A stretch of DNA of 63,039 nucleotides, the filler included, from Hausera hauseri (Eukaryota): the NCBI GenBank assembly GCA_046269625.1. It is 12 parts of 12 records of this genome, joined end to end, with 100 filler letters (N's around TTAATTAATTAA, not from the genome) between each part and the next. Parts side by side here need not be neighbours in the genome. Positions count along the whole stretch, not along the records: positions 47,185 to 51,308 come from JBJURY010746987.1; 11 more parts are not named here. One strand, 5' to 3'. A program made the position numbers and the translations under genes. This document shows positions 8,858 through 61,400 of this stretch, in pieces (positions within the stretch are counted from its first letter, which is position 1; the number at the start of each line of letters is the position of its first letter). Below the pieces are notes generated by a model. The model did not search any database. It was given only the letters and a program-made list of their open reading frames with translations, and was not told the DNA's origin.

Positions 8858-8866
8858 ATCAATCAA

Positions 8867-9157: not shown

Positions 9158-9624
9158 CATATACTCAAGCTGTAATGGATGAAATCCTTCGATTTAGCTC
9201 AGTAGTTCCTTTAGCCCTCCTTCATAGAAATTTCAAAGATACGGAAATCAATGGGTACTTCATTCCTAAGGACACAACAATTATTCCAAATCTTTTTGCT
9301 TGTCATCGAGATGAAAACGTTTGGGAAAAACCGTTGGAATTTTATCCCGAACACTTCTTATCAATATCTCATGGAGACGTTCTAGAATATACCCCACGAG
9401 AGGAACTCGTTCCATTTGGACTTGGCAGAAGGCAATGTCTAGGGGAAATCCTAGCAAGGTTGGAGTTCTTTGTTTTTCTAACGTGTATTGTTCAAAATTT
9501 TACTGTGTCGTTTGGAAAAGAACTGAGCGATGATGAATATGAAACTGCGATTGTTGGATCTGATGGTATAATACGATCACCTTCAATAAAAGATTTGGTG
9601 TTCGAAACGAGAGGCAGAAAATAG
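9158..9624 (+). CDS. Cytochrome P450 (clan 2), 3' part
   Basis: Contains ExxR (EILR), the PERF-like FYPEHFL and the heme motif PFGLGRRQCLG. The 5' end is cut by the contig edge. Confidence 0.93.
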
Positions 9625-11379: not shown

Positions 11380-12956
11380 GTGGAGACTATTCAGAATACA
11401 GTATTGTTCATATCATTTATTCATTCGATTCTGTTAATCATTCTATGTTCGATTTTGTGTTCTATATTGGGATTATTTACCATTTTCCAATATTGGAAAC
11501 CTAAAATTCCACCAACGTTAAAACGACTTCATGTCGTGAGAGGCAATTATCTCTTTGGGATTTTATTTCAAATTAAGGGTCCAACGTTTCAATACTTCTA
11601 TAACTTATCCAAGAAATATGGTTCATTATTTATGGTCCGTCTGGGAATGAGAAATGTCCTACTAATTAATGACTATAAAACGCTGAAAATTGCCATGAAA
11701 AGTCAGGGAGATAATTTTTCTGGCCGGGTAAAATCACAAATTTTTCTATTGTAACAAAATCGTCTGGAATTCTGTGGATTGATGGAGAAAAATGGGCCAC
11801 TCATCGGCTTTTCCTATTACGGATAATGAAAGATTTTGGAGTGGGTAAAGAAGTTTCCCGTGAAATCGTAGGAACAGAATGCGAACATTTGATTGGCGAT
11901 TTGCGAGAAACGAGTGGAAAGACCGTAAATTTTTTTGATTATATATCCCTATGTACAGGGAATATTATTGCGAAATTTGTCATGAATAAACAGTATTCAT
12001 TATTAGATAAAGAAGTTCAGATAATTAAAGAATACATGGAGACGGAAATACGGGCGAAGAACATTGTACATATTGTAAGCCTAATTTTCCCATTCATTGA
12101 TAATAATTATTTCCTGTCAAATGTTTTACTGAACTCTACTAGTCATTTAGCAAGAACGGATCAATTATTACATATTGTCAAAAAGCAATTGGAACTGCAC
12201 AGGATGGAATTGGAAACCCGGTCCGAATATAAAGATGTTATTGGTCAGTTCCTTTCCGAACAGAAGAGACTCAACGAACAAGGAGTTAAACATACGTTTG
12301 ATTACTGGCAGTTGATTCGATCAACCGGAGAGTTATTAGCTGCTGGATACGACACGACATCAGACACACTCATGTGGGGTATGGTTATCCTTTCGAGATA
12401 TAAAGATATTCAACAAAGAATATATGAGGAAATTATTTACCATGTGGGTTCGGAAAGACTCCCCACAATTCATGATAAAAAGAATATGCCATATACTCAA
12501 GCTGTAATGGATGAAATCCTTCGATTTAGCTCAGTAGTTCCTTTAGCCCTCCTTCATAGAAATTTCGAAGATACGAAAATCAATGGGTACTTCATTCCTA
12601 AGGACACAACAATTATTCCGAATCTTTTTGCTTGTCATCGAGATCAAAACGTTTGGGACAAGCTTTTTGAATTTTATCCCAACCACTTTTTATCAACATC
12701 TGACGATGGAACAATCCAATACACCCCACGAGAAGAACTTGTTCCGTTTGGACTTGGTAGAAGGCAGTGCCTTGGGGAAAATCTAGCAAGACTGGAGTAT
12801 TTTATTTCTTTTGGCAGTATTATCCAACGGTTTAAAGTATCTTTCACAAAGGAACTCAGTGATGATGAATACAAAGAAAGCATAGTCGGGACTGATGGTA
12901 TAATAAGAGCAACACCAATCAATGATTTCATTTTTGAAACAAGAAATTGCACATAG
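11380..12956 (+). CDS. Cytochrome P450 (clan 2), apparently intronless, with one frameshift at ~11741-11745
   Basis: N-terminal TM anchor and Pro hinge, WATHR (WxxxR), AGYDTT I-helix, EILR and PFGLGRRQCLG. Adding one T in the T5 run fuses the two ORFs. The start codon is unclear (GTG at 11380). Confidence 0.9.
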
Positions 12957-25330: not shown

Positions 25331-28300
25331 GTGTGTTGTATAAATCGGAAAGCTGAAAGTTATTATGGTTTAGAGACATCAAATAGAGAGGAAGACAGGA
25401 CAAAAGAAGATATTATTCAAACGGTTGACGTAAATGATATACCATGTACGAAGTTGGAAGAAATCTCTGAAATAGACTTGCTAAAATCGAAAGAAATTGT
25501 CGATGATTCTATTTCCAAAGTAAGAGAAAAACGAATGTCATCCGAAGATATATTATCAAATAACTCAGGCGAAGGAGAGAATAAGGTAACACTGACTGAT
25601 GACAGAGGGGAGCAAGCTGGTAATAAGATAGAAGTTTCAGGTGATAATACATTAACAAAGCATGAAAGTAACGAGTCATTGGAAATGGAAAATGAGCCTG
25701 ACAAATTATTTCATGATTCAACAGAGAGATTTGTTGATGATGTAATTGTACAAGAGGACAATTTTCACCAAGAAAAGGACAACATAGTTACAACGGAACC
25801 TGAAAGTAGTGAAGCATGTGAAAACAATGAACATAAAATCAAAGATGAATTTAAATTATCCCATCAATTAAATGTGGAAGAGTATGGAAATAACGCAAAA
25901 GCACCGAAAATTGAAGGCGAGGAATTGAAAGAGGAAAATGATTATTCATCGTACATTCAATTTGCTACAAGAACAGAAGAACAAAATGAAAATGAAGCAG
26001 ATACATCGAATATATCCGATAGTCAAATAAAACCAGCCAAAACGGTGCATACAACAAGAGCGGAATTACCAAAAGAATCGGGTGACTATCACGATACCTC
26101 CGAATATTCAGAAAACAGAATTGAATCAGTGTGTGGTGTAACAAAAGAGCAAGTTAATGATTCGTCTGAAAATGAAGCTAATACTATGACCATAGATGTA
26201 GTTTCCAATAACACAGAGAATGAGCCAACTGACAGTAAATCTGATGCACCGCATGCCATAATATCAAAAGAATCGAATAAGATTGAAAGTGAAGAAGACG
26301 AATCCGAACTTCAGTATATTCAATTAGCAGAACAAAGTATAGATGAAAGTAATTTGACGAATGTTGAAGCTATACGTGATGAACAGAAAGAACTTGAAGG
26401 TAGTGAATCAGAAGTAGCTTGTTGTGATCCCAATCAACCCTTAAATAATTTGTTAGTGTCACCTAATACTGAATTTGAAGAAGAACAAGTCGAAAGGAGT
26501 ATAGATGTAACTAATATGTCATATGAAGAACAAAATGAGATGGCTGAGAGTGAATTGGAGATATCACATGTTCGATTTACAGACAGACCTATTAAGAGTG
26601 AAAATGATACTGATGAATCGAATACCGCATTTTATTCATCAGATAAAGAATATAAAGAGCATGTGCATGATTCCATCGAGTCTAATAATATTGCACTGAC
26701 AGAAGAAAACATAAATCAAACCGCTGTGACATCCATTGAGATGAAGAACGAAGAATCCTATGACGAAAAGAAAGAGACCACTGTATGTGAATCAGATACT
26801 TGGCCTGCGGAATTTTTATGTGATGCTGAATGTTTGGCACGCGTAAGTGAGCCAATTTCCAAAGAACAAGTTCGGGATTCACCGGAACTGAAATTGTTCG
26901 AGTATCAGAGGATTAATGAGAATCAGGTGGATATATCTCAAGGCGACTTTTTAGAACCAACAACGAAATTTAACGAAAATGTCGCAATCAAAGGCGATGT
27001 GATAGAACCGCTTGAGCAGACGGGAAAGATATATGCTGAAATTAAAGACAATAAATTAAACGGTGAAAACGATACGTTGGATAATCAGGCGACAGATAAA
27101 ATTGAAGCGGTTTCAACTCCAAACCATGAGGGACCAATGGAACTGTTTGATAAGAATGGAGAAAATGTTGTTACGGATGATGCGAACAAAACCTTCAATG
27201 AGGAGTCTGTCGGTCAGTCAAATGAGAAACTTACTAATGTAGATAAAAATAATGCTGAACATGAAGGACAGACAAAAGACACAAATGAAAAGGAACGTGA
27301 CAGTTTTGTGAGACGTGTTATAACTGATATATGTATGGACGTAGAAGATTCAACAACAGAAAATGAACATGGATCAGTTTCAGGCAACGACTTCATGAAC
27401 TTGAAACTTGAAGAAAAAACTGAGAACCCTGAGTATTCTGGGATAATGCCAATGAATTCCGCGGAAGATTCGAGGGCGAAAGAAAACAAAAAATTGCATG
27501 GAAGTAACGCTGGTGATATCGTATTATCTGCTAATACATCATGTGAGTGTACAACAGAAGTTGAAGGAAAAGAGTTCAAAGAGTTCGAATCTGGAGATAT
27601 TACGTGCGATACTCTAAATAATCAACTTTCTGAAAAAGACGTGATTTATCCCGAATTTGAACGATCGAAAGAGCTGTCTATTTTTCATAGCAAGAATGTA
27701 GAACTGTCAAATAACGAAGAAATAAAAGGCCCAACGACATACAGCATTCTAAATGATACAGTATGCTTGGAACAAAACGAAGTAGATAAATATGAATCAC
27801 GTGTAGAAACAAACGAAAACTTGGAGAATACATTTGATATTTTGCCGGATGAACTTCACTCTGATTTATCAAAAACACCATTTGGCATCAATACTGAAAC
27901 AGGAACACTGAAAGACACTGATGACGTGCAATTTGTCAATTCGGAGTGTACTGGTTGTATCTAATCCCGAAATTCGACAGATGATTATTTAGCGTATTAT
28001 AGTGACGAAACAAAAGACTCGTTAGTATTAGGACAAACTGAAGATCAGACATATATTGATGGGGATAATTCTAGTGAGGATCATATTAAATCAGTTCAGA
28101 AATCGAATGAGATTGACGATGCAACGTCAAGAGCGGAATGCGATATAAGTACAACTAGTGAAACTAATGAACAAACTTTGGCTTCTGTTAAACAGGATGG
28201 TTTTGAAACAGTTGAGACATCCGGTGTTGTAATTGATGAATCAGAGAAAACAGTTGAATATGATTGTGAGAAACCATTCGTAGAATTATCGGATAAATTA

Positions 28301-29353
28301 GATGATGATGTCGATTGTGTGGAATATCTAGAGAAGAGAAGTGATGTAGATTATACTGCGTTAAGATGTTCGACTCATGAAGGTGATTCCGATACACATC
28401 TGGAAGGAAATCTTGAAATTACAGCTGAAGTAAAGTGTGATCCATCTCTCAACACCAAAACCAGTTCACCAGAACATTGTATGAATGCAACACAAGACAC
28501 ATATTTATCGTCGAAAGAAAATGACTGTGAAGCAGGGATGGAGAAGGAAATATGTAATATTGTATTACCAGCATCTACAAACAATAATGAAGGGGGGATG
28601 ATACAATATAATCTGAAATTATCATCTGTATTAGCAACAGAAAGACCTGATAACACACATGGTAAATCTAGTGAGGAGTGTAATTTAACGGATGACAATG
28701 ATTTGTTGGAGAGTATTCAAGTAGAACATTCGAACCGATTATATATTTCTGAAGAAATTGAAAAGAACTGTCTTCTAGTTGAAGAAGAGCAATCAGCATC
28801 AGGAGATAATTTGGCATGCTTTACCAATATCGAAGACGTGGAGAATGGAAGCGTTGAATTAGGAATCAAAGATTTGTCAGATGAATCTCTATCTAATGAA
28901 AGTATTTTACTTGATGCAAATATAAATAGTATATCCGATGAGAACGAAACATTTGTTTCTGTGTTAGAAATGCCCCATAAAAGTTTGACTATACAAGAGA
29001 ACGTGAATGAAGATTCAATAGAATATGATGACTTTATTAAATTATCTTATAGTGAAAACGAATCAATAAACATTGTACACACAACGGAATTATGTGAAAA
29101 ACAAAAGAAGGAATCCAACCATATCAGGAATAAAGAAGAAAGTTCGTTCGAAATGTCCGAAAGTACAGATTCTCAAAATATGCCTATCTCACTCAGAAAA
29201 GTTGAGGTTGAACCAAACAACTTGGTTGACGATCCAAGCGAATTGGAAAATAAACAGAAAGTTGTACCTGAAAACGTCTCAGAATTCCTCAGAGAAAAAA
29301 CTATTCACAAAAGAAACTGCTATTGGTTTTCGTTAATTGTTTCAGCTTTATGA
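25331..29353 (+). CDS. Large exon encoding an acidic (E/D/N/S/T-rich) low-complexity, probably disordered, protein region; one in-frame TAA
   Basis: The 877-aa and 391-aa ORFs share a frame, and the ~70 codons between them are open apart from TAA at 27962-27964. The 5' end runs off the contig and no domain was recognised. Confidence 0.7.
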
Positions 29354-30163: not shown

Positions 30164-31919
30164 CCCAGTTCTCTGATAATGAAATGTGAATCGTATCCAC
30201 TTAAGTTGTGAAATATCACGGGGATAAATTTAACAGTTCGGCAGCGGAGGTTACAAGAATTGTATGCTGGACCACGATATTTTCCCGTGATGTAACAGTG
30301 ATCCTGAACTTTGTTATTGTCAGCGGTAAATGGTTTTGCACACAAGTAGCAAACTGAAACAATCTTCCATTGCGCTTCTTCAATTGCTGTAATAACCATT
30401 TTCCTCCGCTTCATATCTTCGATACTGTGAGCAAGTTCTTCCAACCGTTTCATAAAAATTAATGCTGCATTTCGGCCCCTGTATAGGTATGGCTCGTCTG
30501 CAAATCCTTTTACAAACATGAAAAAAGACACTGTCTCATGTAAATGATAGCTTGTATTACTTGAGTGATCCTTATTCGGGTGACATGTATGGATTGGAGT
30601 AAGGATCGACTCAAAATTACAATAGATTACGAACGGTACACGTAACATTTTCTCATGTTTTTTAAAACATATGAAATCTTCCATGTAAAAATCTGTTCGG
30701 ACGACAGATTTCTTTTCATTGCAGTAAAACGTGTGTTCTGTTAATTTTTCTTCCGATAGTTGTCCATGTTGGTAATCAAAATGCGAAAATCACTTCTTGA
30801 ATATTAATATTCTCCCATTGCGTTTGGTAATTTGCGATTTAATTAACCGTTCAAAGTTTTTTATCCATACATAATGATTTTTATCATTACCGTCACTTAA
30901 TAACAGCAAATCCATATTGTCCAATTTTTCGTCATTGCAAACTTTGAACGGATACATTTTGTTCTTTTCATCAATCGCAAAAACATTGATTGACATATTA
31001 TCATTAAATTTTTCAAATTTCTTGACGTACAGCAACGACGGGGGAAATGATATACAGGAGAAATTATATGGATGATTAACTTTTGTGTACTGCTCAACTC
31101 ATTGTGGATGTGTAGATACAAATTTTGAGAGAATTGAATACATGGAACATAAATCGTCATCATAGTTCTGTACATTAATGCATGCCTTTTTATCTTTAAT
31201 CCATAGAGGCAGCTTAATGTATGATGATCCACGCATTGGGGAATATTTGTGAATCCTCAGTATGAGTCCTTTGATGTTCGAAAGAGTCCATCCGCTTTTC
31301 TTAACATGGCTTTCATCGGCTTCATTTAGAAATTTTGTAAACTCTCCATCCAAGTAATTGGTAATTTCTGAAGCTTGCCGGATAGGCTTGCTTATTGTTT
31401 TGAAAGCCCTTTTTGACAGTTCACCATCCTTTTCAAAGTCAGTCTCCAGAAAAAGGTTAAATTTCAGGGCATTGAATTCCGAGAGATTTTTGTTTAAAGT
31501 CGTTTTACACGAAAGTTGTACTTGGGTGCACATAGAGACACGGGATCATTCAATGAAATCAGTACGGGCGTTTACAGAAAATGCATTTCATACTTGCGAA
31601 AAATTCGTTTCGGTAAGAATATTTGTGTTTGGCGCGTCGACGGTTTTGATTTTCCTTTACTTATTCCAATCATTTCATTTCGCCTTTTTAACGTCGGTTT
31701 TGCTGCTGATGATGATTTGTGAGCAAGTTCCTTTTTCGTTTCCAGAAAATCGACCTGCAGACAATGACCCGGTTTTTTTAATTGTTGGACAGGTTCCCGC
31801 AGTTTGACATTAGAATTGTAATTTTTATAACCAAACAACCACGAACAATCTGAATTTTCATCATTCGCACAATCATCATCATTGAGTAGAATCGTTTTGT
31901 CGTCGTCGTCGTCTTCCAT
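30164..31919 (-). pseudogene. Maverick protein-primed DNA polymerase B (pPolB), N-terminal half
   Basis: KSGWTL...RGSSYIKLP...KKACINVQN; exonuclease I (VIYCNFESIL, degenerate YADFE); endonuclease VII-like CYLC...VQDHCYITGKYRGPAYNSCNL; exonuclease II FHNLSGYDSHFI. Has stops and frameshifts. The start at 31919 is inferred. Confidence 0.9.
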
Positions 31920-37297: not shown

Positions 37298-38503
37298 ATC
37301 GACATCCGCAAAATCTGAATTGTGCATACTTGACAAAGCTGCAACACAAGTTGTTATTGACAATGTTGTATTTGAAGAAATCTACCCCGTTGATTCTGTT
37401 TAAACACTATGGCATCGGACAATGAATATTTGATTTGAACGATACGTTACTGCATGTAAAAGTCATTGTTAAAAAGGATGCATCAACGGTTCTTGCTGCA
37501 ACAGATATTGTCATACCGACCAATTACTTTTTCTCGCATTGTTCCAGGAGGCTTCATTGACTCTAAACAGTGTCAAAATTGAAGGCAACACAAGTCTTTA
37601 CAGTATCAAAACACTCATTGAAACGGATCTAAATTGCAGTGCAGAAACGAAAACGACTCATTTGACGAAAACCATCGGATATAACGCCATTGCAGCAAAC
37701 CGTCAGGCATGGATGTAAGAATCAAAAGCGCTTACAATGTGTGGACCGCTGTACTCTGAATTTTTCGGTCAGCCGAAATACCTGCTGCCCGGTGTTAAAT
37801 CCATGATTCGGCTCAAACACAGCGACAATGTCTTTTGTTTGAAAACTGCAGTTGCAAATCTAAAACCCATACTGAAAATAACCGAGGCACGATTATACGT
37901 ACGTCGTGTAAAGGTAGAAACATCTGTGATTATGGGACATCGATTGGGTTTGGAAACACAAAATGCCTGTTATCCATTACAACGCACAGAACTCGTGTTC
38001 TTCAACATACCCAAAGGTTCAACTACGTTTTACAAAGATGCTCTGTTTGGCGACATGCGATTGTCGAAATTTGTGCTCGTTACATTTCAAATGACTGTTA
38101 AACAAACGGGCAGTTATACGACTATTTGGAAACGTTTACCCATAGCAATGTGAATTACATCAGTTTGGGCAAGAATGCGGATTTTGTTAAGACGTACAAA
38201 CAAGACTTTGAGTCTAATGATTATGTTTGCACATATATGCAATCCATCGTGCGCAACATGGGTTTGCTCAACAAAAACATCAACAATGGCATATCGATGG
38301 ATTTTTTCAAGTCCACCTACCCATTCTTCACATTTGTCCTGTCTCCGGACTATGACGTTGAGCAGGCTCAATTACCTCAACAGGGAAACCTGCGATTGGA
38401 GGTTCACTTTGCCAAAGCGTTGGAACAGTCTACCGTGATGTATATTTACGGTGTATTTGATGTGGAGGTGGAAATAACACAAAAACGGAACCGTCATTGT
38501 ATA
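37298..38503 (+). pseudogene. Maverick major capsid protein (PY)
   Basis: Colinear homologue of 7623-8857 (SAKSELCI...QPKYLLPGV...GNLRLEVHF) with several indels and stops. Confidence 0.88.
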
Positions 38504-38597
38504 AATAAACCTAATGCATTACTCTTGCCATACTACTACTCAATACTATGAAGTAATTGATTATTAATATTGTTATGCTTTAATCCCACGTTTTACA

Positions 38598-40418: not shown

Positions 40419-43400
40419 GGTGTGGAATTCCATGGTGTGGTCCTTCATGGTATAAACATCCATAGTGTTTTCTTTCATGGTGTGGACTTCCATAGAGTGC
40501 CCTTTATTGGTGTCGACTTCAATAAAGTGGTCTATCATGGTGGGGACTTCCATACTGTGGTCTTTCATGGTATAGACTTCCATAGTGTGTTCTTTCATGG
40601 TGGAGACGTCCAGATGTAATTTTTCATGGTGTGGAATTCCATCATGTGGTCTTTCATGGTGGGAATTTCCAGATGTGGTCTTTCATGGTGTGGAATTTTA
40701 TGGTGTGGTCTTTCATGGTGGAGAGTTCCATGATGTGGTCTTTTATGGTGGGGATTTCCATCATGTGGTCTTTCATGGTATGGACGTACATAATGTGTTC
40801 TTTAATGGTGGCAATTACCAGATGTGGTCTTTCATGGTGTGGAATTCCATGGTGTGGTCCTTCATGGTATAGACATCCATAGTGTGTTCTTTCATGGTGT
40901 GGAATTCCATGGTGTGCACTTTCTTGATGTCGACTTCAATAAAGTGGTCTATCCGGCTGGGACTTCCACACTGTGGTCTTCCATGGTGGAGAGTTCCATG
41001 ATGTGGTCTTTTATCGTGGGAATTTCCATCATGTGAACTTTCATGGTATGGACTTCCATAGTGTGTTCTTTCATGGTGGGAACTTTCAGATGTGGTTTTT
41101 CATGGTGTGTAATTCCATGGTGTTGCCTTTTATGGTTTGGACTTCCGTACTGTGGTATTTCATGATGGCGAGTTCCATGATGTGGTATTTCATGTTGCGG
41201 ACTTTCATGGTGTGGTCTTTCATGGTGTGGACTTCCATAGTGTCGTCTTTTATGGTGTGGACTTCCATAGTGTGGTCTTTTATGGTTTGGATTTCCATAG
41301 TGTGGTATTTTATGGTGTGGACTTCCATAGTGTGGTCTTTTATGGTGTGGACTTCCATAGTGTGGTCTTTCTTGGTGTCGACTTCCATGATGTGGTCTTT
41401 CATGGTGTGAAATTCCATGGTGTGGTCTTTCGTGGTATGGACATCCATAGTGTGTTTTTTCATAATGTGGACTTCCATAGTGTGGTCTTTCATGGTGTGG
41501 AGTTCCATAGTGTGGTCTTTCATGGTGTGGAATTCCATGGTGTGGTCTTTCGTGGTATAGACATCCATAGTGTGTTCTTTCATGGTGTGGACTTTCATGG
41601 TGTGCACTTTCTTGGTGTCGACTTTGATAAAGTGATCGATCATGGTGGGGACTTCCATACTGTGGTCTTTCATGGTATAGACTTCCATAGTGTGTTCTTT
41701 CATGGTGGGGACTTCCAGATGTAATCTTTCATGGCTTGGAATTTTATTATGTGGTCTTTCATGGTGTGGTCTTCCATGATATTATTTTTTATGGCTGGGA
41801 CTTCCATAATGTGGTCTTTCACGGTATGGACTTCCATAGTATGTTCTTTTATGGTGGGGACTTCCGTGGTGTGGCCTTTCAAGGTGTGGACTTCCATGAT
41901 GTGGTCTTTCATGTTGTGGTCCTCCATGATATTGTCTTTCATGATGTTAACTTCCATAATGTGGTCTTTCATAGTGCTAACTTTTATGGTGTGGCCTTTC
42001 ATGGTGCGGACTTCCATCATGTGGTCTTTCATGGTGTGGAATTCCGTGGTGTGGTCTTTGATTGTATGGACATCCATAGTGTGTTTTTTCATTGTGTGGA
42101 ATTCTATAATATGGTCTTTCATTGTGTGGTCCTCCATGATATGGTTTTTTATGGCTGGGACTTCCATAATGTGGTCTTTCATGGTATGGACATCCATAGT
42201 GTAAACATCCATGGCGTGCACTTTCTTGGTGTCGACTTCAATAAAGTGGCCGATCATGGTGGGGACTTCCATACTCTGGTCTTTCATGTTATGGACTTCC
42301 ATAGTGTGTTTATTGATGGTGGCAACTTCCATTTATTGTCTTTCATGGTGTGCAATTCCATGGTGTGGTCTGTCATATCATGGAAATCCATAGTGTGTTC
42401 TTTTATTGTGTTAACTTCCATGGTGTGGACTTTCATGGTGTGGACTTCCATACTGTGGTCTTTCATAGTGTGGAATTCCATGGTGTGGTCTTTCGTTGTA
42501 TGGACATCCATAGTGTGTTCTTTCATGGTGTGGAATTCCATCACGTGGTCTTTCATTGTGTGGTCTTCCATGATATGGTTTTTTATGGCTGGGACTTCCA
42601 TAATGTGGTCTTTCATGGTATGGATTTTTATAGTGTGTTCTTTCATGGTGGAGACTTCCAGTGATTGTCTTTCATGGTGTGGAATTCCATGGTCTGGCCT
42701 TTCATCCTGTGGATTTCCGTACTTTGGTCTTTCATCATGTGGACTTCCATATTGCGGTCTTTCATTTAAGGGACTTCCATGATGTGTTCTTTCGTTGTGT
42801 GGACTTCCATTGTGTGGCCTTTCGTAGTGTGGCCTTTCATGGTGTAGACTTCCATTCTCTGGTCTTTCATGGTGTGAACTTCCATGGTGTGGCCTTTCAT
42901 GGTGTGGACTTCCATCCTCTGGTCTTTCATGTTGTGGTCCTCCATGATGTTGTCTTTCATGATGTTAACTTCCATACTCTGGTCTTTCATGGTGGAGAGT
43001 TCCATGATGTGGACTTTTATGGTGGGGATTTCCATCATGTGGTCTTTCGTGGTATGGATTTCCATAGTGTGTTCTTTTATGGTGGGAACTTTCAGATATG
43101 GTCTTTTATGGTGTGGAATTCCATGGTGCGGTCCTTCATGGTATGGACATCCATAGTGTGTTCGTTTATGGTATGGATTTTCATAGTTTGCCCTTTCTTG
43201 GTATCGACTTCAATAAAGTGGTCTATCATGGTGGGGACTTTCATACTGTGGTCTTTCATGGTAAGGACTTTCATAGTGTGTTCTTTCATGGTGGAGACTT
43301 CCAGATGTAATAATTTTTGGTGTGGAATTCCATCCTGTGGTCTTTCATTGCGTGGTCTTCTATGATATGGTTTTTTATGGCTGGAATTTCCATAATGTGG

Positions 43401-46400
43401 TCTTTTATGGTATGGACATCTATAGTGTGTTCTATCATGGTGTGGACTTCCATAGTGTGCCCTTTCTTGGTGTCGACTTCAATAAAGTGGTCTATCATGG
43501 TGGGGACTTGCATACTGTGGTCTTTCATGGTATGGACTTCCATAGTGTGGTCTTTCATGGTGTTAACTTCCATGATGTGGCCTTTCATGGTGTTGACTTT
43601 CATACTGTGGTCTTTCATGGTGGGGAATTCCGTGATGTGGTCCTTCATGGTGGGGATTTCCATCATGTGGTCTTTCATGGTATGGATTTCTATAGTGTGT
43701 TCTTTCATAGTGGGAATTTCCAGATGTGGTCTTTTATTGTGTGGAATTCCATCATGTGGTCTTTCATGGTATGGACTTCCATAGTGTGTTCTTTCATGGT
43801 GGGGACTTCCAGATATGGTCTTTCATGGTGTGGAATTCTATAGTGCGGTCTTGCATTTAGGCTACTTCCATAAAGTGTACTTTCGTTGCGTGGACTTCCA
43901 TGGTGTGGTCCTTCATGGCATGGACATCCATAGTGTGTTTTTTCATGGTGTGGACTTCCATAGTGTGCCCTTTCTTGGTGTCGACTTCAATAAAATGGTC
44001 TATCATGGTGGGGACTTCCATTCTGTGTTCTTTCATGGTATGGACTTCCATAGTGTGTTCTTTCATGGTGGGGACTTCCAGATGTAATCTTTCATGGTGT
44101 GGAGTTCCATCATGTGGTCTTTCATGATGTGAAATTCCGTAATCTGGCCTTTTATCGTGTGGATTTCCATACTTTGATCTTTCATCGTGTGGACTTCCAT
44201 ACTGCGGTCTTTCATTTAGGCGACTTGCATGATGTGTTCTTTCGTTGTGTGACCTTTTATGGTGTGGCCTTTCATGGTTTGGCCTTTCATGGTGTGGACT
44301 TCCATCCTCTGGTCTTTCATGGTGTGGTCTTCCATGGTGTGGCCTTTCATGGTGTTGACTTCCATAGTGTGGTCTTTCATTGTGTGGACTTCCATGGTGT
44401 GGCCTTTTATGGTGTTGACTTCTATGCTCTGGTGTCTCATGGTGGGGACTTCCATGATGTAGTCTTTCATGTTGTGGTCCTCCATGATGTTGTCTTTCAT
44501 GATGTTAACTTCCATAGTGTGGCCTTTCATGGTGTGTACTTCCATATTGTGGTCTTTCATGTGGGGAATTCCGTGATGTGGTCCTTCATGGTGGGGATTT
44601 CCATCATGTGGTCTTTCATGGTATGGACTTCCATAGTGTGTTCTTTCATAGTGGGAAATTCCAGATGTGGTCTTTCATTGTGTGGAATTCCATGGTGTGG
44701 TCTTTCATGGTATGGACTTCCATTGTGTGTTTTTTTATGGTGGGGACTTTCAGATGTAATCTTTCATAATGTAGAATTCCATCATCTGGTCTTTCATGAT
44801 GTGAAATTCCATAGTCTGGCCTTTCATCATGTAGATTTCCATACTTTGATCTTTCATCGTGTGGACTTTTATACTGCGGTCTTTCATTTAGGCGACTTGC
44901 ATGATGTGTTCTTTCGTTGTGTGACCTTCCATAGTGTGGTCTTTCATTGTGTGGACTTCCATGGTGTGGCCTTTTATGGTGTGGACTTGTATGCTCTGGT
45001 GTTTCATGGTGGGGACTTCCATGATGTAGTCTTTCATGTTGTGGTCCTCCATGATGTTGTCTTTCATGATGTTAAATTCCATAGTGTGGTCTTTCATGGT
45101 GTTAACTTTCATGATGTGGCCTTTCATGGAGTGGACTTCCATACTGTGGTCTTTCATGGTGGGGAGTTCCGTGATGTGGTCCTTCATGGTGGGGATTTCC
45201 ATCATGTGGTCTTTCATGGTATGGACTTCCATAGTTTGTTCTTTCATAGTGGGAACTTCCAGATGTGGTCTTTCATGGTGTGGAATTCCATGGTGTGGTC
45301 TTTCATAGTATGGACATCCATAGTGTGGACATCCATAGTGTGCACTTTCTTGGTGTCGACTTCAATAAAGTGGTCGATCATGGTAGGGACTTCCATACTG
45401 TGGTCCTTCATGTTATGGACTTTTATAGTGTGTTCTTTCATGGTGGAAACTTCCAGTTATGGGCTTTCATTGTGTTCAATTTTATGGTGTGGTCTGTCAT
45501 ATCATGGACATCCATAGTGTGTTCTTTCATGGTGTTAACTTCCATGGTGTGGCCTTTCATGGTGTGGACTTCCATGGTGTGCACTTTCTTGGTGTCGACT
45601 TCGATAAAGTGGTCGATCATGGTGGGGACTTCCATGCTGTGGTCTTTCATAGTGTGGACTTCCATAGTGTGTTCTTTCATGGTGGGGAGTTCCAGATGTA
45701 ATCTTTCATTGTGTAAAATTCCATCATGTGGTCTTTCATGGTGTGGTCTTCCATGGTGTGGCCTTTCATCGTGTGGAGTTCCATACATTGGTTTTTCACT
45801 GTGTGGACTTCCATACTTCGGTCTTTCATTTAGGGGACTTCCATAAAGTGTTCTTTCGTTGTGTGGACTTCCATGGTGTGGCCTTTCATGGTGTGGACTT
45901 CCATGATGTGGTCTTTCATGTTGTGGTCCTCCATGATGTTGTGTTTCATGATGTTAACTTCCATAATGTGGTCTTTCATTGTGCTAACTTCCATGGTGTG
46001 GCCTTTCATGGTGTGGACTTCCATACTGTGGTATTTCATAGTGTGGAATTCCATGGTGTGGTCTTTCGTTGTATGGACATCCATAGTGTGTTCTTTTATG
46101 GTGTGGAATTCCATCACGTGGTCTTTCATTGTGTGGTCTTCCATCATATGCTTTTTTATCGCTGGGACTTCCATAATGTGATCTTTCTTCCTGTGGATTT
46201 CCATGGTGTGCACTTTCTTGATGTCGACTTCAATATAGTGGTCGATCATGTGGGGACTTCCATACAGTGGTCTTTCATGTTATGAACTTCCATAGTGTGT
46301 TCTTTCATGGTAAAGACTTCCAGATATGGTCCTACATGGTGTGGAATTCCATGGTGTGGTCTTTCACTGTATGGACATTCATAGTGTCGTCTTTCATGGT

Positions 46401-47084
46401 GTTGACTTCCATGGTGTGCACTTTCTTGGCGTAGACTTGAATAAAGTGGTCTATCATCTTGGGGACTTCCATACTGTGGTCTCTCATGGTATAAACTTCC
46501 ATAGCGTGTTCTTTCATGGTAGGGACTTCCAGATATGATCTTTTGTGGTATGGAATTCCATGGTGTGATCTTTCATGATATGGACATCCATAGTTTGTTC
46601 TTTCGTGGTGTGGACTTTCATGGTGTGCACTTTCTTGGTGTCTACATCAATAAAGCGGTCTATCATGGTGGGGACTTGCATACTGTGGTCTTTCATGGTA
46701 TAGACTTCCATAGTGTGTTCTTTCATGGTGGGGACATCCATGGTGTGCACTTTCTTGGTGTCGACTTCGATAAAATGGTCTATTATGGTGGGGACTTCCA
46801 TACTGTAGTCTTTCATGGTATGGACTTCCATAGTGTGTTCTATCATGGTGGGGACTTGCAGATGTAATCTTTCATGGTGTGGAATTCCATGATGTGGTCT
46901 TTCATTGTGTGATCTTCTATAATATGGTTTTTTATGGCTGAGACTTCCATAATGTGGTCTTTCATGGTATGGACTTCCATAGTGTGTTCTTTCATGGTGG
47001 GGAATTCCAGTGATGGTCTTTCATGGTGTGGAATTCCATGGTCTGGCCTTTCATCGTGTGGATTTCCGTAGTTTGGTCTTTCAT
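40419..47084. repeat. Tandem satellite: 15-bp monomer / 30-bp dimer with higher-order blocks
   Basis: Consensus GTGGTCTTTCATGGT-GTGGACTTCCATAGT fills the whole 6.7-kb contig (roughly 440 monomers). Confidence 0.96.
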
Positions 47085-47184: not shown

Positions 47185-48348
47185 TGGTATGCTAGATTAC
47201 TTTCATTGTGCCTAGATCGTAGTCAGTTTGTGCGAATTGATTGTTATTTTTTTTTAATAATTCAATTAGCATCCCTTTCTCTTTCTTACTTAGAATTTTG
47301 AATTTTTGTAATCTTTTGTTCCAATCGATATTTGTAGTTTTATTTCTTCTTTTGTCTTCGTTTGGTTTTCTTTTCAGTTTGTCCGTCATTATCTTTTCTA
47401 TTTTATCTACATCTGATATTACTGAGCAGATTTTTTATTTTATTATTTCTTCAGTGATGGTTACTTTTTCCAGTCTAGTACCTTTCCGTAATCGTTTTTC
47501 TTTGTTTGTTATGTTACACATTCGTAAGTTGACCTTTCCATTTCTTACTTTATCTACGTGAAGAGCGATTAGTACTTCATATTTCTCCATAACCTGTGGG
47601 ATGGTTCAAAATAGATAGCCTCTGGTAAGGCACGACTCTCGATTTTTTCAGGTACTACTATCTCGAATCGCAGTGGAATCGTAATGTCTTTTATTATTGA
47701 AACCATTCCCTCGTTACGATCTTCATTAAATGTCTTAAGTTGGCATGTTCCCATATCTATATAAGCGTTCTCCAATTGGTTTAATATATCGCATACAATT
47801 AATACTTCGTTAGTTAAATTATCTGCTATTCTTATGGTATGTTTCAACAATTGTTCGCCGATCTTAATTTTAGCATCTAAGACCATCTTGATTTCTTCTT
47901 CAATACCGAATGCACCTACATTTACCAAAGTAGTTGTCGGTCTTCGTAATTTTCTTTTTAGCTCTTTTGTCAATTGGCTCCTTCCCATTAACGTTGTTGT
48001 AGATCCAGTATCTAGCAAAGCCGTCATTAGATACCCGTTCACCTCTATTTCTATTTCTGGTCTTATAGGTGGTTGTCGTTCATTTTTATCGTTAAGAGTG
48101 CACGTAGATTCACGTTTATAGGGGGTTAAGTTTTTATCAAAATTTTGTTTCATCTGTTGAACTTGTTGTGTAGGGTATAATCTTGCATGTATTACGTATC
48201 GAGGAGCTGAAGGATTTATTAACGGTTGTTCATTATACATTTGTCCATGATATTTGTCCACGGGGTCTAGACGGGCTAAGTCCGTTATTAAATTCTGTCT
48301 ATACTTCGGTTTCCGTGTCTTTAGTACTAGTTTTTTGATACTAGGTTC
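47185..48348 (-). mobile_element. Ty3/gypsy protease and start of reverse transcriptase
   Basis: IEVNGYLMTALLDTGSTTTLM...EVLIVCDIL (retropepsin), then LIELLKKNNNQFAQTDYDLGTMKVI*H, a typical gypsy RT lead-in, cut by the contig edge. Confidence 0.88.
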
Positions 48349-50308
48349 TCATTTCTTTGCTTTCATCTGACTATATTCGGCATCATTATCATCAGGTATA
48401 CTATACGGGGATTCTTTGATGTCTTTTCTTTGTAGTATCTTCCTCTTCCATTGTGCATCATGGTTTGCTAAGAAACAACTTGCTACCGCCGGTATTACCG
48501 CTATTAGGATTTTCCATGAGCATCTTAATTTTGCATGTATTCCATAGGCTTTACCTAGTGCCGTAAATACGGTCTGTATGGCGCTAATAATAAAATATAG
48601 CTAGAAAACCGGAAGCTGCTTGGCCAAAATATAAGAACTTTCCCCATATCTTCTCCATAACGTTTTTTGTTACCTTCTTTAGATAATCCTTACCCATAAG
48701 GTTTTCCCATTGTGATGATCCTTCGCCATCCCACATTACTCTCCTAGCCAGTTCTGTTATAACTTTTTGTCTCTGTTGCGGAAACAACAACATTCATCGA
48801 TAATCCTCTAGATTTTGTTGTGTGTAAATTCCTCCCTGTGATATACCGGCTAACGGTTCGAATTTTTGATTCCTTTGCAGATTAATCAAATTTAACTTCT
48901 CCGGTTTGGACACTGGTTCCCTTTTTGGCATTCTGATCCACTTGTCGTTGTTGATCTTAAACATTGACGACATATTTAACGTGCATTTGTATAATGGAGT
49001 AGGCTTCACATTAATATCTAATAGTATTCTAGTTACTGGCATCACATATTTTGGTTCTGTATGGTAAACCACAGGTAATTCCACTGTACATTCTTCTGTT
49101 GGTCTGATTGATACTTCTACCTTTTTACATTCTATTGTTATCAGTACCTCGTCCATCACTCTGCCAATGATTCCGTTGCCGAAGGGCATAACGGGCACTA
49201 CCATATCCGGATTCGTTATTACCAATGTCATTTTATTGCGCATTCTTTCGTAATTCGGCTTGCATTTATTCATTATTATTTCTCGATATAAGCCTCTAAT
49301 TTCTTTTCTTACATAATTCATTAAAAAAGCAATCTTGTTATCGAAATATTGTATTAACTTTATATCCTTTTTATCTATTTTGGTTTTCGCACCTGGTATT
49401 TCTTTTCTCGATAAGAATATGCCCTTGTAATTGGTTTTTGATATCTCTTCGCTACACTTATTTGCTACTCCTGTGAGTTTAAATCGCATCATTTCTTCCG
49501 GATTTTCAAAATATACAATTGTAGCTACTTCTGTCATCTTCACTTCCTTTGTTCCTTCTATATATGTCGCTATTTCTTTTTCCGCCGTTTTTCCTACTGT
49601 CTTGTTAAACTTTCCTTCCTTTAATAGCGTTAACTGGCATTTACTTGCAATGGTTTACCATGTCATTTTCGATTCTCCAGTATTACATTCTCTATTATCA
49701 TATTCGCACTCACTCATAGTCATCATCAGTTTTGTCTGTGAGTCGAATAACACTTCATATTCTTTTAACTGAATCTGGTAATCTTCGATGGCTACCGTTC
49801 TAGGCGCAATGGTACCTCCGACATCGTAATCCACTCCTTTACAAGTGCCTTCTATTGATTTGTTTATTCTTCCTGCCCTGAAAATTCTGGTATATTTTAT
49901 TCGGTTTCGAACTGCCGGTATATGTGCATTATGGATACTTATTATGCCAATTTTGAAAGCATCCTGGCATTCTGCTCGTGATATAATTATCGGTTCAAAA
50001 GGCATCGTAGGCTCGATTATGGCTGAGTTTCCAGAATAATAGGCACAATTAAACAGAATAAATAATCTTTTTACGTAACATTCCCTGACTTTTGCATTTA
50101 TGAATTCGGGTTCTTGTTATACCCAGTATGCAAGACCACTTGTCGTTGTTAACTGTTCTGGATCGGCTTCTGGACACTTCTCCAAATCCACCAAAGAATA
50201 TTTTTGACCTTCGCTAAATTTAGAGCAGTAATAAGCTACTATACCTACAGCTTTCGGCATCAATAATGACGTTATTAGGAGAATTTGAATAATCTCCATC
50301 ATTGACAT
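48349..50308 (-). pseudogene. Chuvirus-type (class III) envelope glycoprotein carried by an LTR retrotransposon
   Basis: Signal-like hydrophobic stretch, then IVAYYC..YSLVDLEKC; GTCKG; CEYDNREC..W; YFDNKIAF..LY..KC; GRVMDEV..IECKKVEV...CTVELPV..P.TRIL; GGIYTQQNLEDYR*MLLFP..ELARR; TM region WGKFLYFGQAASGFLAIF. The Cys spacing fits chuviral G as I recall it. About 650 codons with a few stops and one frameshift. Confidence 0.8.
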
Positions 50309-51308
50309 ACCTGTTATGCCTGGTCTAGAGGTGTTTGGTTGTGTCGCCGTTGGCGTATCTATTAATCTTTCTCGTTCTCCTGGCCTTATTACATTAGTCA
50401 TGAAGGTGGTCAACCATCCACCTCTATACTGAGCCCAATTGCCTAACGTATCTTTTAAAAATTTTACGGCTGTCCTTATATTGCGCTCAATTCCTTCTAG
50501 ATTTTGAGTTTGGTGATTGATTACTGTTATCTTATATAGAAGGTATGATATCGCCATTCGAGCTTTTTCGCGTTTAATTCCGGTTGCGAACATTTCTTCT
50601 AAAATATTTATCTCGTAGTTCATTTATTCGTTCTTCATCTAAATTCTCGTAGAATTGCGTACTTATTCGTAGCATATTGTTATGTAACGTTGTGAATAGT
50701 TCATCTGGTATTATTGCCTGCATGTAAAATGAGGCAAATGACGTATGTAATCTAACCAATAACATTCTTAATAATGGGTCTATGTCCACTGATTCGGGAG
50801 TACCATCTATTCCTGCTAATAATAATCGTCTTACTATTTCTTCGTTTCTATCTTTTCTGTTGCGAATGTCACTTATTTTTGTCCCTTTTGGTCTACCTCT
50901 TCTCCTGACTTCTGTTTGAACTGTGACATCTTGAGTATCACCCACAGGATTTTCTACCTCCTGTGGTTGTAGTTCCCTGTTGACTGTGCTCTGGCCTCTG
51001 GATGTATTTCGGTCATTGTTATCGGATTGTAGTTTTCACTTCTACATCCAATTCTCAATAATTTATCGTAATTATATAACGTCCTTCCGTAATAATTTAA
51101 TCCCTAAGGGCTTCCTTGATAAAAAGGTTCCAGCTCCTCAATCTTTTCTATTAAAGATTGTATGTCGTCTGCTTCATTCATTCTGATAACCCTCATGTCT
51201 TGGTTTCCTTCCCTTACTGTTATCCTTATAACTTCATTTCTTCCTTTCTCATCCTCGGCAGCTTTGGCCAATACCGTCCTAGCTATTTCTCTAACAGGAC
51301 TGGTGTCT
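50309..51308 (-). pseudogene. Polyprotein region upstream of the glycoprotein (possible ubiquitin-like domain, AT-hook-like RRRGRPK)
   Basis: Largely open coding sequence with two frameshifts leading into the glycoprotein frame. No integrase or CCHC motif was seen. Confidence 0.5.
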
Positions 51309-57399: not shown

Positions 57400-58480
57400 T
57401 TCTGCAATCACATTTGTCCTCACTGATAGTACTTCATTTCTATTATCTGCTTCTGAACACTCTTGATTGTCTGGAACAAATTCGCCACCGGGACAAGACA
57501 GTGATATCTCTCTGAAACAGTCATTTGTCTTTTTATTTGATTTTAGTACCCCCTGGATCCGCTTTCCTTCTCCATCGTTGAAAAGGACATACGTCCAATC
57601 GTCAATTACCTTTTCAACTCTGAATGAACGCCAAAATTTATTACGTCAAAACCAATCTTTGTTTCGCACTGTACCATTACGACATATTCTATTCCAAATC
57701 TCTTGTTCCATTTGTTCCTGTTATATCTGATTGCCTCTTGTTTTCCTTTCTCTTTCTATCGTTCAATAAATTTTTAATAAACTATTTCAAACTTCATGTG
57801 TAACTTTGATATGTTCACTGATGCTGAGTGATCCATCACTGATATCGACATTTCGTAGCAATGGGCTTCTTTGTCTGAATCCGAACACAATCCCATAAGG
57901 CGTATACCCTGTCGATTTATGCCACGAGTTTCTTGTACCATACTCCGGTATAAATAGAACTTCTGACCCATCTAAGATTTTACGAACATCTATGATTGCG
58001 GCTATGTGATTTCACAGTACGAAATGATTTTTCTCTTAGTCCATCACGCTGTGGATAATATGGAGACGTAAACGATTTATTGATACCCATGAATTTGAAA
58101 AATTCTTTAAACAGTGTATTTTATCTGGAATTCCTCATTTTGATATACAGTGTGTCCAAAGAACATTTGCGACTTCCTGTGCTAACATCGATTTCAGTGG
58201 AATCAAAATTATATACTTTGAAAAATATTCATTAATACCTAGAATATATCTGTAGTCATCTCTGATACTTCTAAATGGTCCTATTATATCAGTACCAATC
58301 ATTTGGAATGGTTTCAATTTATTGAACTTCTGTAAAGGTACCTTGAAACGGCCTTTTTTCTTTGTGTCTATAAGAGAACTGACAGGTAGAAATAGCTTTT
58401 TTATTTCATTAGTCATCCCACGCCAGAGATAATCCTCTGTAATTCCCATAATCATGCTTTTAAAAACAGCAGTCATCATT
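57400..58480 (-). mobile_element. Ty3/gypsy integrase remnant
   Basis: YLWRGM...PFQMIGTDIIGPF...YILGINEYFSKY...GIPDKIH...TSPYYPQRDG, plus a degenerate GPF/Y region. Confidence 0.85.
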
Positions 58481-58499
58481 AAAACAACGGACGCGCTGC

Positions 58500-61400
58500 C
58501 TTTGCTTCTAACAACCGTCCTGGTTCCCCCTTTTCAAAAAATCTAACTTCGCCACTAGAGCTTACGGTGAGCACTGGCTAGGGCCACTCTTTACTTTCTA
58601 TTAGCCGAAAAATTTCTCTCCCTGTGTTCACATTGAAAGCTTCTACCACTGCACCGATACCTCAACAAATAAACTTCCTTATCGATACAGGTGCAGCGAT
58701 ATCGCTGCTACCGCTCACTTTTCTCGTTTAAAACGTTCCATCTAAAGTAAAATCTCTTTTACGGCTTCCAAATGACCGTTGCATCTTTCTGGAAATTCAA
58801 AACTTTCCTTCACTTTGCCAAACTTCTCTTCAAAGTTTCACTGGACGTTTACAGTTCCAAATGTCCAGACAGTCATTTTTGGATCTGATTTTCGATCGTA
58901 TTACAGTCTTTTGGTCGATTGTAAACAGCGTTATCTGAAAAGTAACTTTAGCAAAAATCAAATCATCCAGTTAAATAACGTTTTAGCTGTCACCTCATTA
59001 CGCAACACCAGAGGCCCATTCGTCAGGAGATACGTCCATTATCTCTTAGACGTAAACAGGTCGTCGAAGCCGAATTTCTAGACCTTGAACGCTGCGATAT
59101 TGTACGTCGATCAAAGTCTCCGTGGTCTTCTCCTTTACATTTGCAAAAAAAGAACGGATCGTTTCGACCATGTGGTGACTACCGGCATCTAAACATTTGA
59201 CCATAATGATTGCGCACCAGTTACCACTGATTAAGGACATCTTACATTGCCTAGATTCCCCACAGTATATTCCACTATTGACCTAGACAAGGCATATCAG
59301 CAGATTTCTGTGACACCAGAAGATATTGAAAAAATCGCAATTTCAACGCCTTTCGGCCTTTATGAATACTTATATATGCCTTTGGCTTGAGGAATGCTAC
59401 CCAAACATTTCAACTACACATAGATGCAATTCTCTCTGATTTTCCTATGCTCAACCTTACATCGACGACATTTAGTTGTTTCTCAATCAGCTAAACAGCA
59501 TGAGGAACACCTCCGATCCATCTTTCAGCGTTTGCATCAACATAATCCTCAGATAAATTTTGCAAAATGTCATTTTTAAGCAGCGCATAAATTACCTCGG
59601 ATACGTTATCCCTTCTGAAGGTTAATCGCCCCAGCCCAACTGAGTTGAAACCCTCAATAGCGTGGAACTACTACGAAAACAACTGAAATGAGGAACTTTC
59701 TCGGAACCTTGCATTTCATCCACAAGTACGTCCCATATTGTTCAGAACTAACTGTATCCTTTGCTCATCATCTAAGTAGCGAAAAAAGTAACAGCCAATA
59801 CTGTGGATGCCTGAATTGTTGGATATGTTTGATAAGTTAAGAGTAGGTCTAAAAACAGTCGAAATTTTAGCATACCCTAAGCCAGACAACAACTTAGTCA
59901 GTTTGCTCGATTAATTTTAAGCTTATCTTCACTCAAAATCGGCTTCAGAAAAACCAGCTATCTCAAGACATCCTTAAATCTTTTAAACCGTGAAATATCG
60001 TTGACGGCGTGGCTCCAGATACGTCCAAACCAAGACAGTCTAAAATTATCTTAGCTCCTGCCTTGAAAAAACAGGCATTCAACGGCGTACATTCACGACA
60101 TCACCCTTGTGCTAAGGCCACTTTTCGCTTGCTTCATCGACAGCTAGTTTAACCGTCAATGCATTCTGATGTTCAAGCGTGGGTCAAGGAGTGCGCAGGT
60201 TGCCAGAAATTTATAACTATCATGCATTTAAAGCCACCACTATATCATTTCCCGTGCACATCGCGCTTCGAGTCCGTGCATATAAATCTTGTTGGCCCTC
60301 TCCTCCAGACAACCGTCATCAATTCACCTTGACCATGATGGACCGTTCATCGCGATGGCCAGAAGCCACCCCTTTGCGGAGCACTAATACGGATACAATA
60401 GCCGATATTTTCATCCGCACTTGGATCAGCAGGTTTGGATTTATCATCACGGACCAAGGTCCTCAATTTAAATCTATCATGTTCAAATCCCTCTACAACC
60501 GATTGGGGATCAGCCATATACACACAACATCTTTTTACCCCCTATAAAATTGCCTTTCTCAACGATTCCACAGAACACTAAAAAAGTCTTTTAGAATCTT
60601 CGCTCTATCTAACAGTAGTTGGGCTGCTCTTTTTCCCTTAGTTCTGCTTGGCTGGTGGAACACTCCGTCTACCTCTACAGGATGCTCACCTACCGAAGCC
60701 TTATTTAGAGCTCCCATACGTTCATTATTTGAGCTAACCGTTCTAGAAGACACGCCTACAGACCAAACGATCCGAGTGGCACAGGACTACTTTGTTGCAG
60801 TCAGTAAAGATTCAAGCTGCAGAATATTATATAACAATAAAACGTATTTACCTGATGATTTATACTCTGCAAAGTTTGGCTATGGAATTAAACTCCGTGC
60901 GGTTTCTAACCAAGGTATTTAGGGCCTTATAGACTCGCTCGGTTGCATTCTCACAATGCGGTTATCTTTCAAGACGGTAAGGAACTAGTGGTGCATATCA
61001 ACAACGTCAAGCTCGCTGTCTTCGTAGATGATACAATCCTAACCGAATCATCCACTTCTTTTCTCACTCTTTCATCGATTTCTGTTCCCACTTCTTCTTC
61101 TGCATCTGCTTAACTTCCTACTATTATTAGTATCCTTTCTGCAGTTTTTATTTCTATTCCATAATCTATTTCTACTTATCGTCTTGCCTCTGTAACTGTT
61201 TCGTCTCCTGCTTCTTTACTTTCGATGCTGAAACGTTCACTTCCACTTCTCCAACAACCCTTTCTTCTTTTTCCAACATGTCCAACAATTTCTTGTTTCC
61301 TCAAACGTCCATTGAAAAATCTTACCCTTCACATTCGTCCGTCTTTCTTCTTGCTTCATCTTTTTTCTTCATCTTCTTCTCCCCTTCATGACTCGTCTTC

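Follow-up and report, generated by a model that had tools for sequence, protein, structure and literature searches.

A decayed Ty3/gypsy polyprotein fragment, very probably of the Burro-like GAG-ENV-POL type, from Hausera hauseri

We analysed the contig JBJURY010746987.1 of Hausera hauseri (assembly GCA_046269625.1), which occupies positions 47185-51308 of a 63,039-nucleotide stretch of DNA (the window), and conclude that it is very probably the middle of a dead Ty3/gypsy long terminal repeat (LTR) retroelement copy of the Burro-like GAG-ENV-POL type, with a chuvirus-type glycoprotein (G) ahead of the protease. The window consists of 13 contigs joined with artificial N44-TTAATTAATTAA-N44 spacers, and 47185-51308 is exactly one whole contig of 4,124 bp, both ends being contig ends. 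Because artificial spacers bound it, the adjoining window sequence is not its genomic context and the missing gag and LTRs are uninformative; no DNA similarity to the other window contigs was found. Natural polyproteins match the contig collinearly from 51307 to 47186 on the minus strand in tblastn, and have no tblastn matches on its plus strand; the coding strand contains 41% A, with an observed/expected CpG ratio of 1.0. The minus-strand order is ubiquitin-like (UBL) domain, Bcl-2-like domain, internal signal, chuvirus-type glycoprotein, transmembrane (TM) region, tail, retropepsin, spacer and lead-in to the reverse transcriptase (RT) domain, as listed below with the evidence for each feature.

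47185..51308, minus strand: internal fragment of a decayed gag-env-pol Ty3/gypsy (very probably Burro-like) polyprotein gene (contig borders; collinear tblastn matches of natural polyproteins)
51011..51240, minus strand: ubiquitin/SUMO-like domain with one stop at 51104-51106 (match to relative P0010, profile, model of P0010)
50886..50906, minus strand: RRRGRPK basic motif (sequence)
50410..50840, minus strand: Bcl-2-like helical domain, split by a frame change at ~50607-50614 (Pfam, profile, model of P0010)
50225..50302 (about), minus strand: internal signal or hydrophobic anchor before G (hydropathy peak of 2.05 at P0001 109-134; start of the PF24664 profile)
48650..50242, minus strand: class III (gB-like, chuvirus-type) fusion glycoprotein ectodomain (PF24664, model, Foldseek, cysteines)
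48454..48649, minus strand: membrane-proximal/TM region and second short hydrophobic helix (P0004 704-761 continuing in frame -1 at 48600-48424; hydropathy)
48349..48351, minus strand: TGA in the linker between G tail and protease, one of seven decay stops (spanning alignments; no downstream structure)
47770..48063, minus strand: retropepsin, LLDTGS, with its D at 48012 (Pfam RVP, E 3.2e-06)
47447..47715, minus strand: spacer between protease (PR) and RT, with a frame change at ~47600-47635 (aligns with the spacers of relatives)
47186..47440, minus strand: lead-in to the RT domain, with stops at 47435-47437 and 47192-47194 (matches P0153 and P0014)

The glycoprotein is the best-defined part of the contig. 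Read in frame -3 (50626 to 48587, with X at stops), it matches positions 1-559 of 653 of the Pfam profile PF24664 (Monjiviricetes_fusion) with E 5.3e-75, far beyond chance, and keeps all 13 near-invariant Cys columns of the alignment; its ectodomain contains stops at 50117-50119, 49655-49657 and 48794-48796. An AlphaFold model of G from 100 aligned sequences reached a mean predicted local distance difference test (pLDDT) score of 89.9. In a Foldseek search of the PDB with this model, herpesvirus gB was the sole kind of protein among the rows shown, HSV-1 gB being best (E 1.2e-14, TM score 0.34, 12% identity), while in BFVD the best matches were the G proteins of Tacheng tick virus 4, chu-related viruses and xinmoviruses (E 2e-38, TM score up to 0.66, 16-20% identity). 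Searched against the PDB by sequence profile, G matched gB below threshold only (E 0.12 and above). The fold of the predicted model marks window G as a class III fusogen; its global TM score to solved structures is modest. These data agree with the preliminary description of the locus, which had read signal, Cys-rich ectodomain, TM, tail, retropepsin and RT lead-in in this order and had proposed a chuvirus-like glycoprotein to be checked for class III similarity.

The region upstream of G, which that description left as unknown, can be identified as ubiquitin-like, followed by the RGRP motif and a Bcl-2-like domain. P0010 matches the contig from its first base, residues 435-533 corresponding to 51307-51011, 578-683 to 50921-50607, and 682-1124 to 50614-49283. 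In this relative gag, a CCHC knuckle at residue 197, UBL and Bcl-2 are followed by G from residue 793, so that gag-CCHC-UBL-Bcl2-G runs within ~790 residues. The contig's own UBL piece, which has no Pfam match at E 0.05, is 31% identical to P0010 435-533 (E 4e-08), and the UBL alignment profile matches the UBL of ISG15/UHRF1 (E about 1e-3). The ubiquitin fold was shown on the intact relative P0010, at the same 31% identity to the window piece: the model of its UBL region corresponds to ubiquitin folds with Z 12.3-12.6 and a root-mean-square deviation of 1.6-2.4 Å over 73-78 residues. The RRRGRPK motif, which we take to be AT-hook-like, recurs in P0010, P0007 and P0153, three of the eight relatives checked. 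For the Bcl-2-like domain, the window piece 50396-50614 matches Pfam Bcl-2 with E 0.0012, and five of ten alignment rows match it with a best E of 2.4e-05, all below the curated cut-off. A profile of the upstream region (10 rows) matches Bcl-xL chains (E 1e-3 to 4e-3), and only ubiquitin-like proteins and Bcl-xL occur among its 60 best PDB sequences of 184 (E 7e-4 to 7e-3). The Bcl-2-like region is all-helical in the P0010 model. Fold searches with the joint UBL and Bcl-2 model did not list Bcl-2, the listing being filled by ubiquitin folds, which is no evidence against Bcl-2; an ESM Atlas search with the Bcl-2-like region gave no usable match. P0007, P0009 and P0153 keep the ubiquitin-like domain without the Bcl-2 GGW motif; therefore the UBL and Bcl-2 modules vary independently.

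Downstream of G, 211 codons separate the pre-TM motif from the protease Asp, against 131-391 in 12 relatives. The PR-RT spacer is probably a dUTPase-like remnant: its profile gives weak dUTPase/dCTP deaminase matches (E 0.68 and 0.91, ranked after a chance ABC match at 0.49), one of seven rows matches the dUTPase-like Herpes_ORF11 (E 0.005), and the ESM Atlas returned unnamed eukaryotic clusters only. The RT lead-in matches P0153 1736-1858 (E 6e-08) and P0014 730-842; RVT_1 of P0153 begins at 1909, and the contig holds the lead-in only, the RT core lying beyond its end. Several relatives (P0004, P0005, P0006, P0007, P0012, P0016 and P0153) have 2-4 retropepsin-like repeats between G and RT where the window copy has one, and P0006 and P0153 carry another such repeat after integrase.

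The relatives came from an exhaustive homolog search with G, which found 847 proteins at E 0.001; the best 150 were listed (13 of at least 1000 aa, 101 of 600-780 aa), and 20 of these, picked for length or offset G, were scanned for domains. Retropepsin lies behind G within one protein in 12 of the 20. When the 17 best matches are considered, 14 were scanned (three short fragments being excluded), and 11 of these hold G and protease in one uninterrupted protein, counting P0011, whose retropepsin is just under the cut-off; the other three end within or just after G. Specifically, P0006, P0009, P0018, P0019 and P0153 carry G, PR, RT, RNase H and integrase (IN) in one protein without a stop, and CCHC knuckles lie upstream of G in P0007, P0009, P0010, P0011, P0016 and P0019 (six of eight checked). 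The protease, spacer and RT lead-in of the contig match relatives with RVT_1, RT_RNaseH, Integrase_H2C2 and rve in gypsy order. The assignment to Ty3/gypsy and the suggestion of a single polyprotein with env before pol, made in the preliminary description, are probably right. Counter-examples occur lower in the list: P0090, presumably BEL-like, has DUF5641 and then G, and P0069, which is 1000 aa long, carries immunoglobulin domains ahead of its chuvirus-type G, perhaps through a fusion in the host, perhaps through an error in the gene model. Homolog searches seeded by words found next to nothing, yielding 0 of 2874 candidates with G for longer forms and one protein (3036 aa) among 2783 candidates in a search for proteins of 1979-5000 aa. 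Long extensions after integrase, flanked by hydrophobic segments and resembling a second membrane protein, are present in P0006 (2480-2745), P0009 (2250-2570) and P0018 (2775-3200); these gave no Pfam match, and the C-terminal extensions of four relatives gave no mutual alignment.

The closest described system is Burro, reported in 2019 from dugesiid planarians, in which a single open reading frame (ORF) carries env in frame, after gag and before pol (PMC6431247). BURRO1 is expressed in planarians under piwi knockdown (PMC8532177). Its order is Ubi/SUMO-like, BCL2, env with mononegavirus fusion-protein matches, PR, dUTPase-like and RT (PMC6431247). The domain order of Burro / GYPSM1 is the same as that of the contig from Ubi/SUMO-like to RT lead-in, and the earlier pointer to Burro was well placed. 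In detail, the contig has a Ubi/SUMO-like domain upstream of BCL2 (fold shown on P0010), a BCL2-like domain directly before env (scores below the curated cut-off), a mononegavirus-fusion-related env between BCL2 and PR, and, where Burro has its dUTPase-like domain between PR and RT, a spacer of fitting place and size with weak dUTPase matches. The one ORF of Burro from gag to IN is broken in the window copy but continuous in P0009, P0019, P0006, P0018 and P0153. The contig matches every Burro feature it can show, with doubt over one of them, the dUTPase-like spacer; decayed Burro fragments with stops and frameshifts are described from Dugesia japonica (PMC6431247). There are also differences. 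Burro is giant, with an ORF of about 5,000 aa, a length above 30 kb when the LTRs are counted, and MATH, BIR, ankyrin, SMC or midasin domains (PMC6431247), whereas the closest upstream relative P0010 is compact, in a comparison of a 4.1-kb contig with a published description. Because P0010 runs from gag to G within 790 residues, the window family may be a compact rather than giant, shorter Burro-like family. Moreover, the available text of PMC6431247 ties the env of Burro to gypsy (F-type) Env, whereas the modelled window G has a class III fold. Another relative, P0015, has over 1,000 unexplained residues ahead of UBL-Bcl2-G and may be a giant form.

A second group close to the contig is the GAG-ENV-POL gypsy elements with gB-type env that Chary and Hayashi describe from Nematoda, Bryozoa and Platyhelminthes, including six in Schmidtea (Smed_errantivirus_1-6) with up to 215 copies (PMC13524379). 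Like the Platyhelminthes C1a errantiviruses of that survey, the contig combines a probable gypsy pol, env ahead of pol and a gB-like/chuvirus-like env, and its G has, by model, a class III (gB-like) ectodomain with signal and TM. In the six Schmidtea C1a rows, eight cysteines and several motifs pair by eye with the N-terminal half of window G, which looks nearer to these rows than to the nematode, orthomyxovirus and rhabdovirus rows of the same page (supplementary file 2, PMC13524379). This resemblance of G makes a flatworm host likely. Those errantiviruses are intact and often multicopy (PMC13524379), whereas the window copy is dead and its ORF is not intact. The words Burro, BCL, ubiquitin, polyprotein and single ORF do not occur in the main text of PMC13524379 as available.

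The nematode elements of Sacco et al. 2022 reportedly have a continuous gag-env-pro-pol ORF, and we know of no UBL or Bcl-2 domain in these endogenous retroviruses (ERVs). As in the contig, non-canonical nematode ERVs are Metavirus elements with an RNA-virus glycoprotein before pol (Sacco et al. 2022, PMID 35550022). Their 18 env rows look much less like window G than the planarian rows do (supplementary file 2, PMC13524379). Anakin comprises BEL/Pao elements with chuvirus G (Dezordi 2020, PMC7642597; PMC10084718, PMC13524379), a glycoprotein of the same Pfam family as window G; unlike in Anakin, where G does not lie between gag and protease, G of the contig precedes the protease, in company with gypsy-type domains in relatives. 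The preliminary statement that chuvirus-type G capture is tied to BEL/Pao is out of date, gypsy cases being catalogued, among them 114 arthropod gypsy elements with chuvirus-like G (PMC13524379). This survey supersedes the finding of no clear gypsy capture of chuvirus G in arthropods given in the available part of PMC10084718. Troyka was considered and rejected, no member encoding an envelope according to the available part of PMC12440569.

The reading path of the contig crosses seven stops (51106, 50119, 49657, 48796, 48351, 47437 and 47194) and four frame changes placed by tblastn of natural relatives (51011-50921, ~50610, ~48595 and ~47600-47635); an eighth listed stop, at 47608, was dropped, since it sits in the overlap ahead of a frame change. 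The TGA at 48349-48351 had been described as the single interruption in a frame shared by glycoprotein and protease. Frame -1 from 48603 indeed carries the remaining TM region, the tail, the TGA and the retropepsin, the tail being in frame with the protease across the TGA; the ectodomain is out of frame with the protease in this copy, as the frame switches at ~48593-48600 inside the TM region. It is very unlikely that programmed readthrough of this TGA controls how much pol is made relative to gag-env, as happens in gammaretroviral gag-pol. The codon does lie usefully for a switch, in frame behind the G tail and ahead of the protease; without a switch, a single ORF would yield its products at 1:1:1, and conservation of the linker is too poor for any close relative to fix the state of the TGA. 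Against it, the six other stops and four frame changes strike conserved domains, G and protease are joined without a break in 13 relatives, and P0005, P0012 and P0016, natural proteins uninterrupted there, each align across the TGA in one piece. In the 120 nt that follow the TGA, folding does not exceed that of shuffled sequence (z 0.37, with 116 of 200 shuffles doing as well). Leaky stop contexts start with C, whereas the base after this TGA is G. Because of the six further stops and the relatives continuous across the position, the plain reading is that the TGA is a decay stop and that the contig, with its other breaks, is a dead copy; as the junction is covered by no close copy, a stop specific to the family keeps a slim chance.

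The preliminary description had also proposed that the gypsy lineage of the contig took up a chuvirus glycoprotein in a capture event of its own, which we consider highly improbable. Among viral structures, chuvirus-type G proteins match best, and GAG-ENV-POL elements are not monophyletic on pol (PMC13524379), so that several origins of the order are possible. Nevertheless, window G is 35-47% identical to polyprotein-embedded G against 16-20% to viral G, and the layout is already published for Burro. A quick IQ-TREE of G (50 of 124 usable rows, midpoint root, no bootstrap; the window row flagged for composition) left out fragments under 420 aa, including P0010, P0008 and P0012, and its 34 other rows were chosen by rank. 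Window G falls inside a 16-row set that contains all 10 protease-linked rows, with a Shimodaira-Hasegawa-like approximate likelihood ratio (SH-aLRT) of 98. This polyprotein clade stands apart from the 34 stand-alone or otherwise fused G rows, one of which, P0052 (a long branch), is its sister, and among which P0090 lies on a separate branch from window G; the phylogenetic check thus separates window G from stand-alone chuvirus/BEL-type G. Judged from these comparisons, the glycoprotein capture is older than the window family.

It is extremely improbable that nested insertion or misassembly brought a 3' env and the pol of a different element together at the junction of G and protease. In favour of this reading, the assembly of the repeat is one of short contigs, and a deletion would likewise leave no gag knuckle between G and protease, yet all 10 of the 150 listed proteins that reach beyond G keep the contig order, three single alignments run through the junction, P0010 has gag-UBL-Bcl2 rather than integrase ahead of G, and the contig contains no LTR-like repeat. 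The earlier statement that no LTR or zinc knuckle lies between G and protease holds, with no CX2CX4HX4C knuckle in any of the three minus frames of the contig and no internal repeat of LTR size within it, though the contig ends make this absence uninformative.

Several points weigh against assigning the contig to a Burro-like element. Gag, RT core, IN and LTRs lie outside it, and the likeness to Burro rests on a published description rather than on a Burro sequence. The Bcl-2 scores and the dUTPase scores of the spacer are below curated cut-offs, and the joint UBL and Bcl-2 model was searched, not the Bcl-2 fold alone. No close intact copy spans the junction (a word-seeded search with tail and protease gave 0 of 1041 candidates), and the spanning relatives are only 20-29% identical there. 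Membrane topology, processing and particle formation, as outlined next, are inferred.

In living members, one ORF would encode gag (capsid and CCHC), UBL, Bcl-2-like domain, internal signal, class III fusogen and one membrane span, followed by pol with protease, spacer, RT, RNase H and integrase; the full gag-to-integrase order is that of relatives, and the contig shows it from UBL to RT lead-in. The internal signal would thread the polyprotein into the endoplasmic reticulum, with gag, UBL and Bcl-2 remaining cytosolic and the ectodomain entering the lumen, and the TM region would lead the chain back to the cytosolic side, keeping protease and pol together with gag. Signal peptidase and retropepsin may then cleave the polyprotein, and particles bearing a gB-like trimer may bud and pass between cells. 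The cleaved signal could be left on the Bcl-2-like domain as a C-terminal membrane anchor, as in cellular Bcl-2 proteins, and the TGA would be a mutation after insertion. A bolder reading, which we consider less likely than not, is that the contig stems from a Burro-like lineage of compact build (gag-UBL-Bcl2-env-pol, ~3,000 residues), whose host may lie outside Dugesiidae and whose internal fusogen signal also serves to anchor a functional viral-type Bcl-2 by its tail, giving an enveloped, cell-to-cell element that keeps the producing cell alive. If this is true, Burro and the flatworm gB-type errantiviruses, which are not cross-referenced in the searched text, would be one group with a class III env.

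As a discovery the contig means little, since a UBL/Bcl-2-fronted in-frame env was published in 2019 and gB-type GAG-ENV-POL elements have been surveyed across animals; its env-before-pol layout is already published, and it adds a dead copy of a known arrangement. The questions it raises are general to the group: the processing and balance of products when one ORF includes a membrane protein in its middle, the infectivity of particles, and a block of apoptosis by the Bcl-2-like domain. Intact relatives could test these, whereas a dead fragment cannot.

The other contigs of the window hold further features. Decayed gypsy RT/RNase H/integrase fragments lie on separate contigs at about 1200-3200 (minus strand) and 57850-60770 (both strands), about 25-36% identical to the polyprotein relatives. 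The whole contig 40419-47084 is a 30-bp (2 x 15) tandem repeat of about 223 copies, whose minus strand contains long open frames rich in His/Thr/Met/Glu/Lys with no Pfam match. A very long acidic low-complexity frame at 25331-29353 (877 + 462 codons split by one stop) likewise has no Pfam match. Two capsid-like ORF copies at 7623-8866 and 37719-38551, 83-89% identical and without a Pfam match, have the look of Polinton/Maverick elements, and the endonuclease VII-containing ORF at 30166-31545 (E 2.5e-05) is of a kind known from the vicinity of Maverick polymerases. Additionally, tandem cytochrome P450 genes are present at 9158-9624 and 11715-12956, with an unbroken stretch of 413 codons that matches Pfam p450 with E 5e-78.

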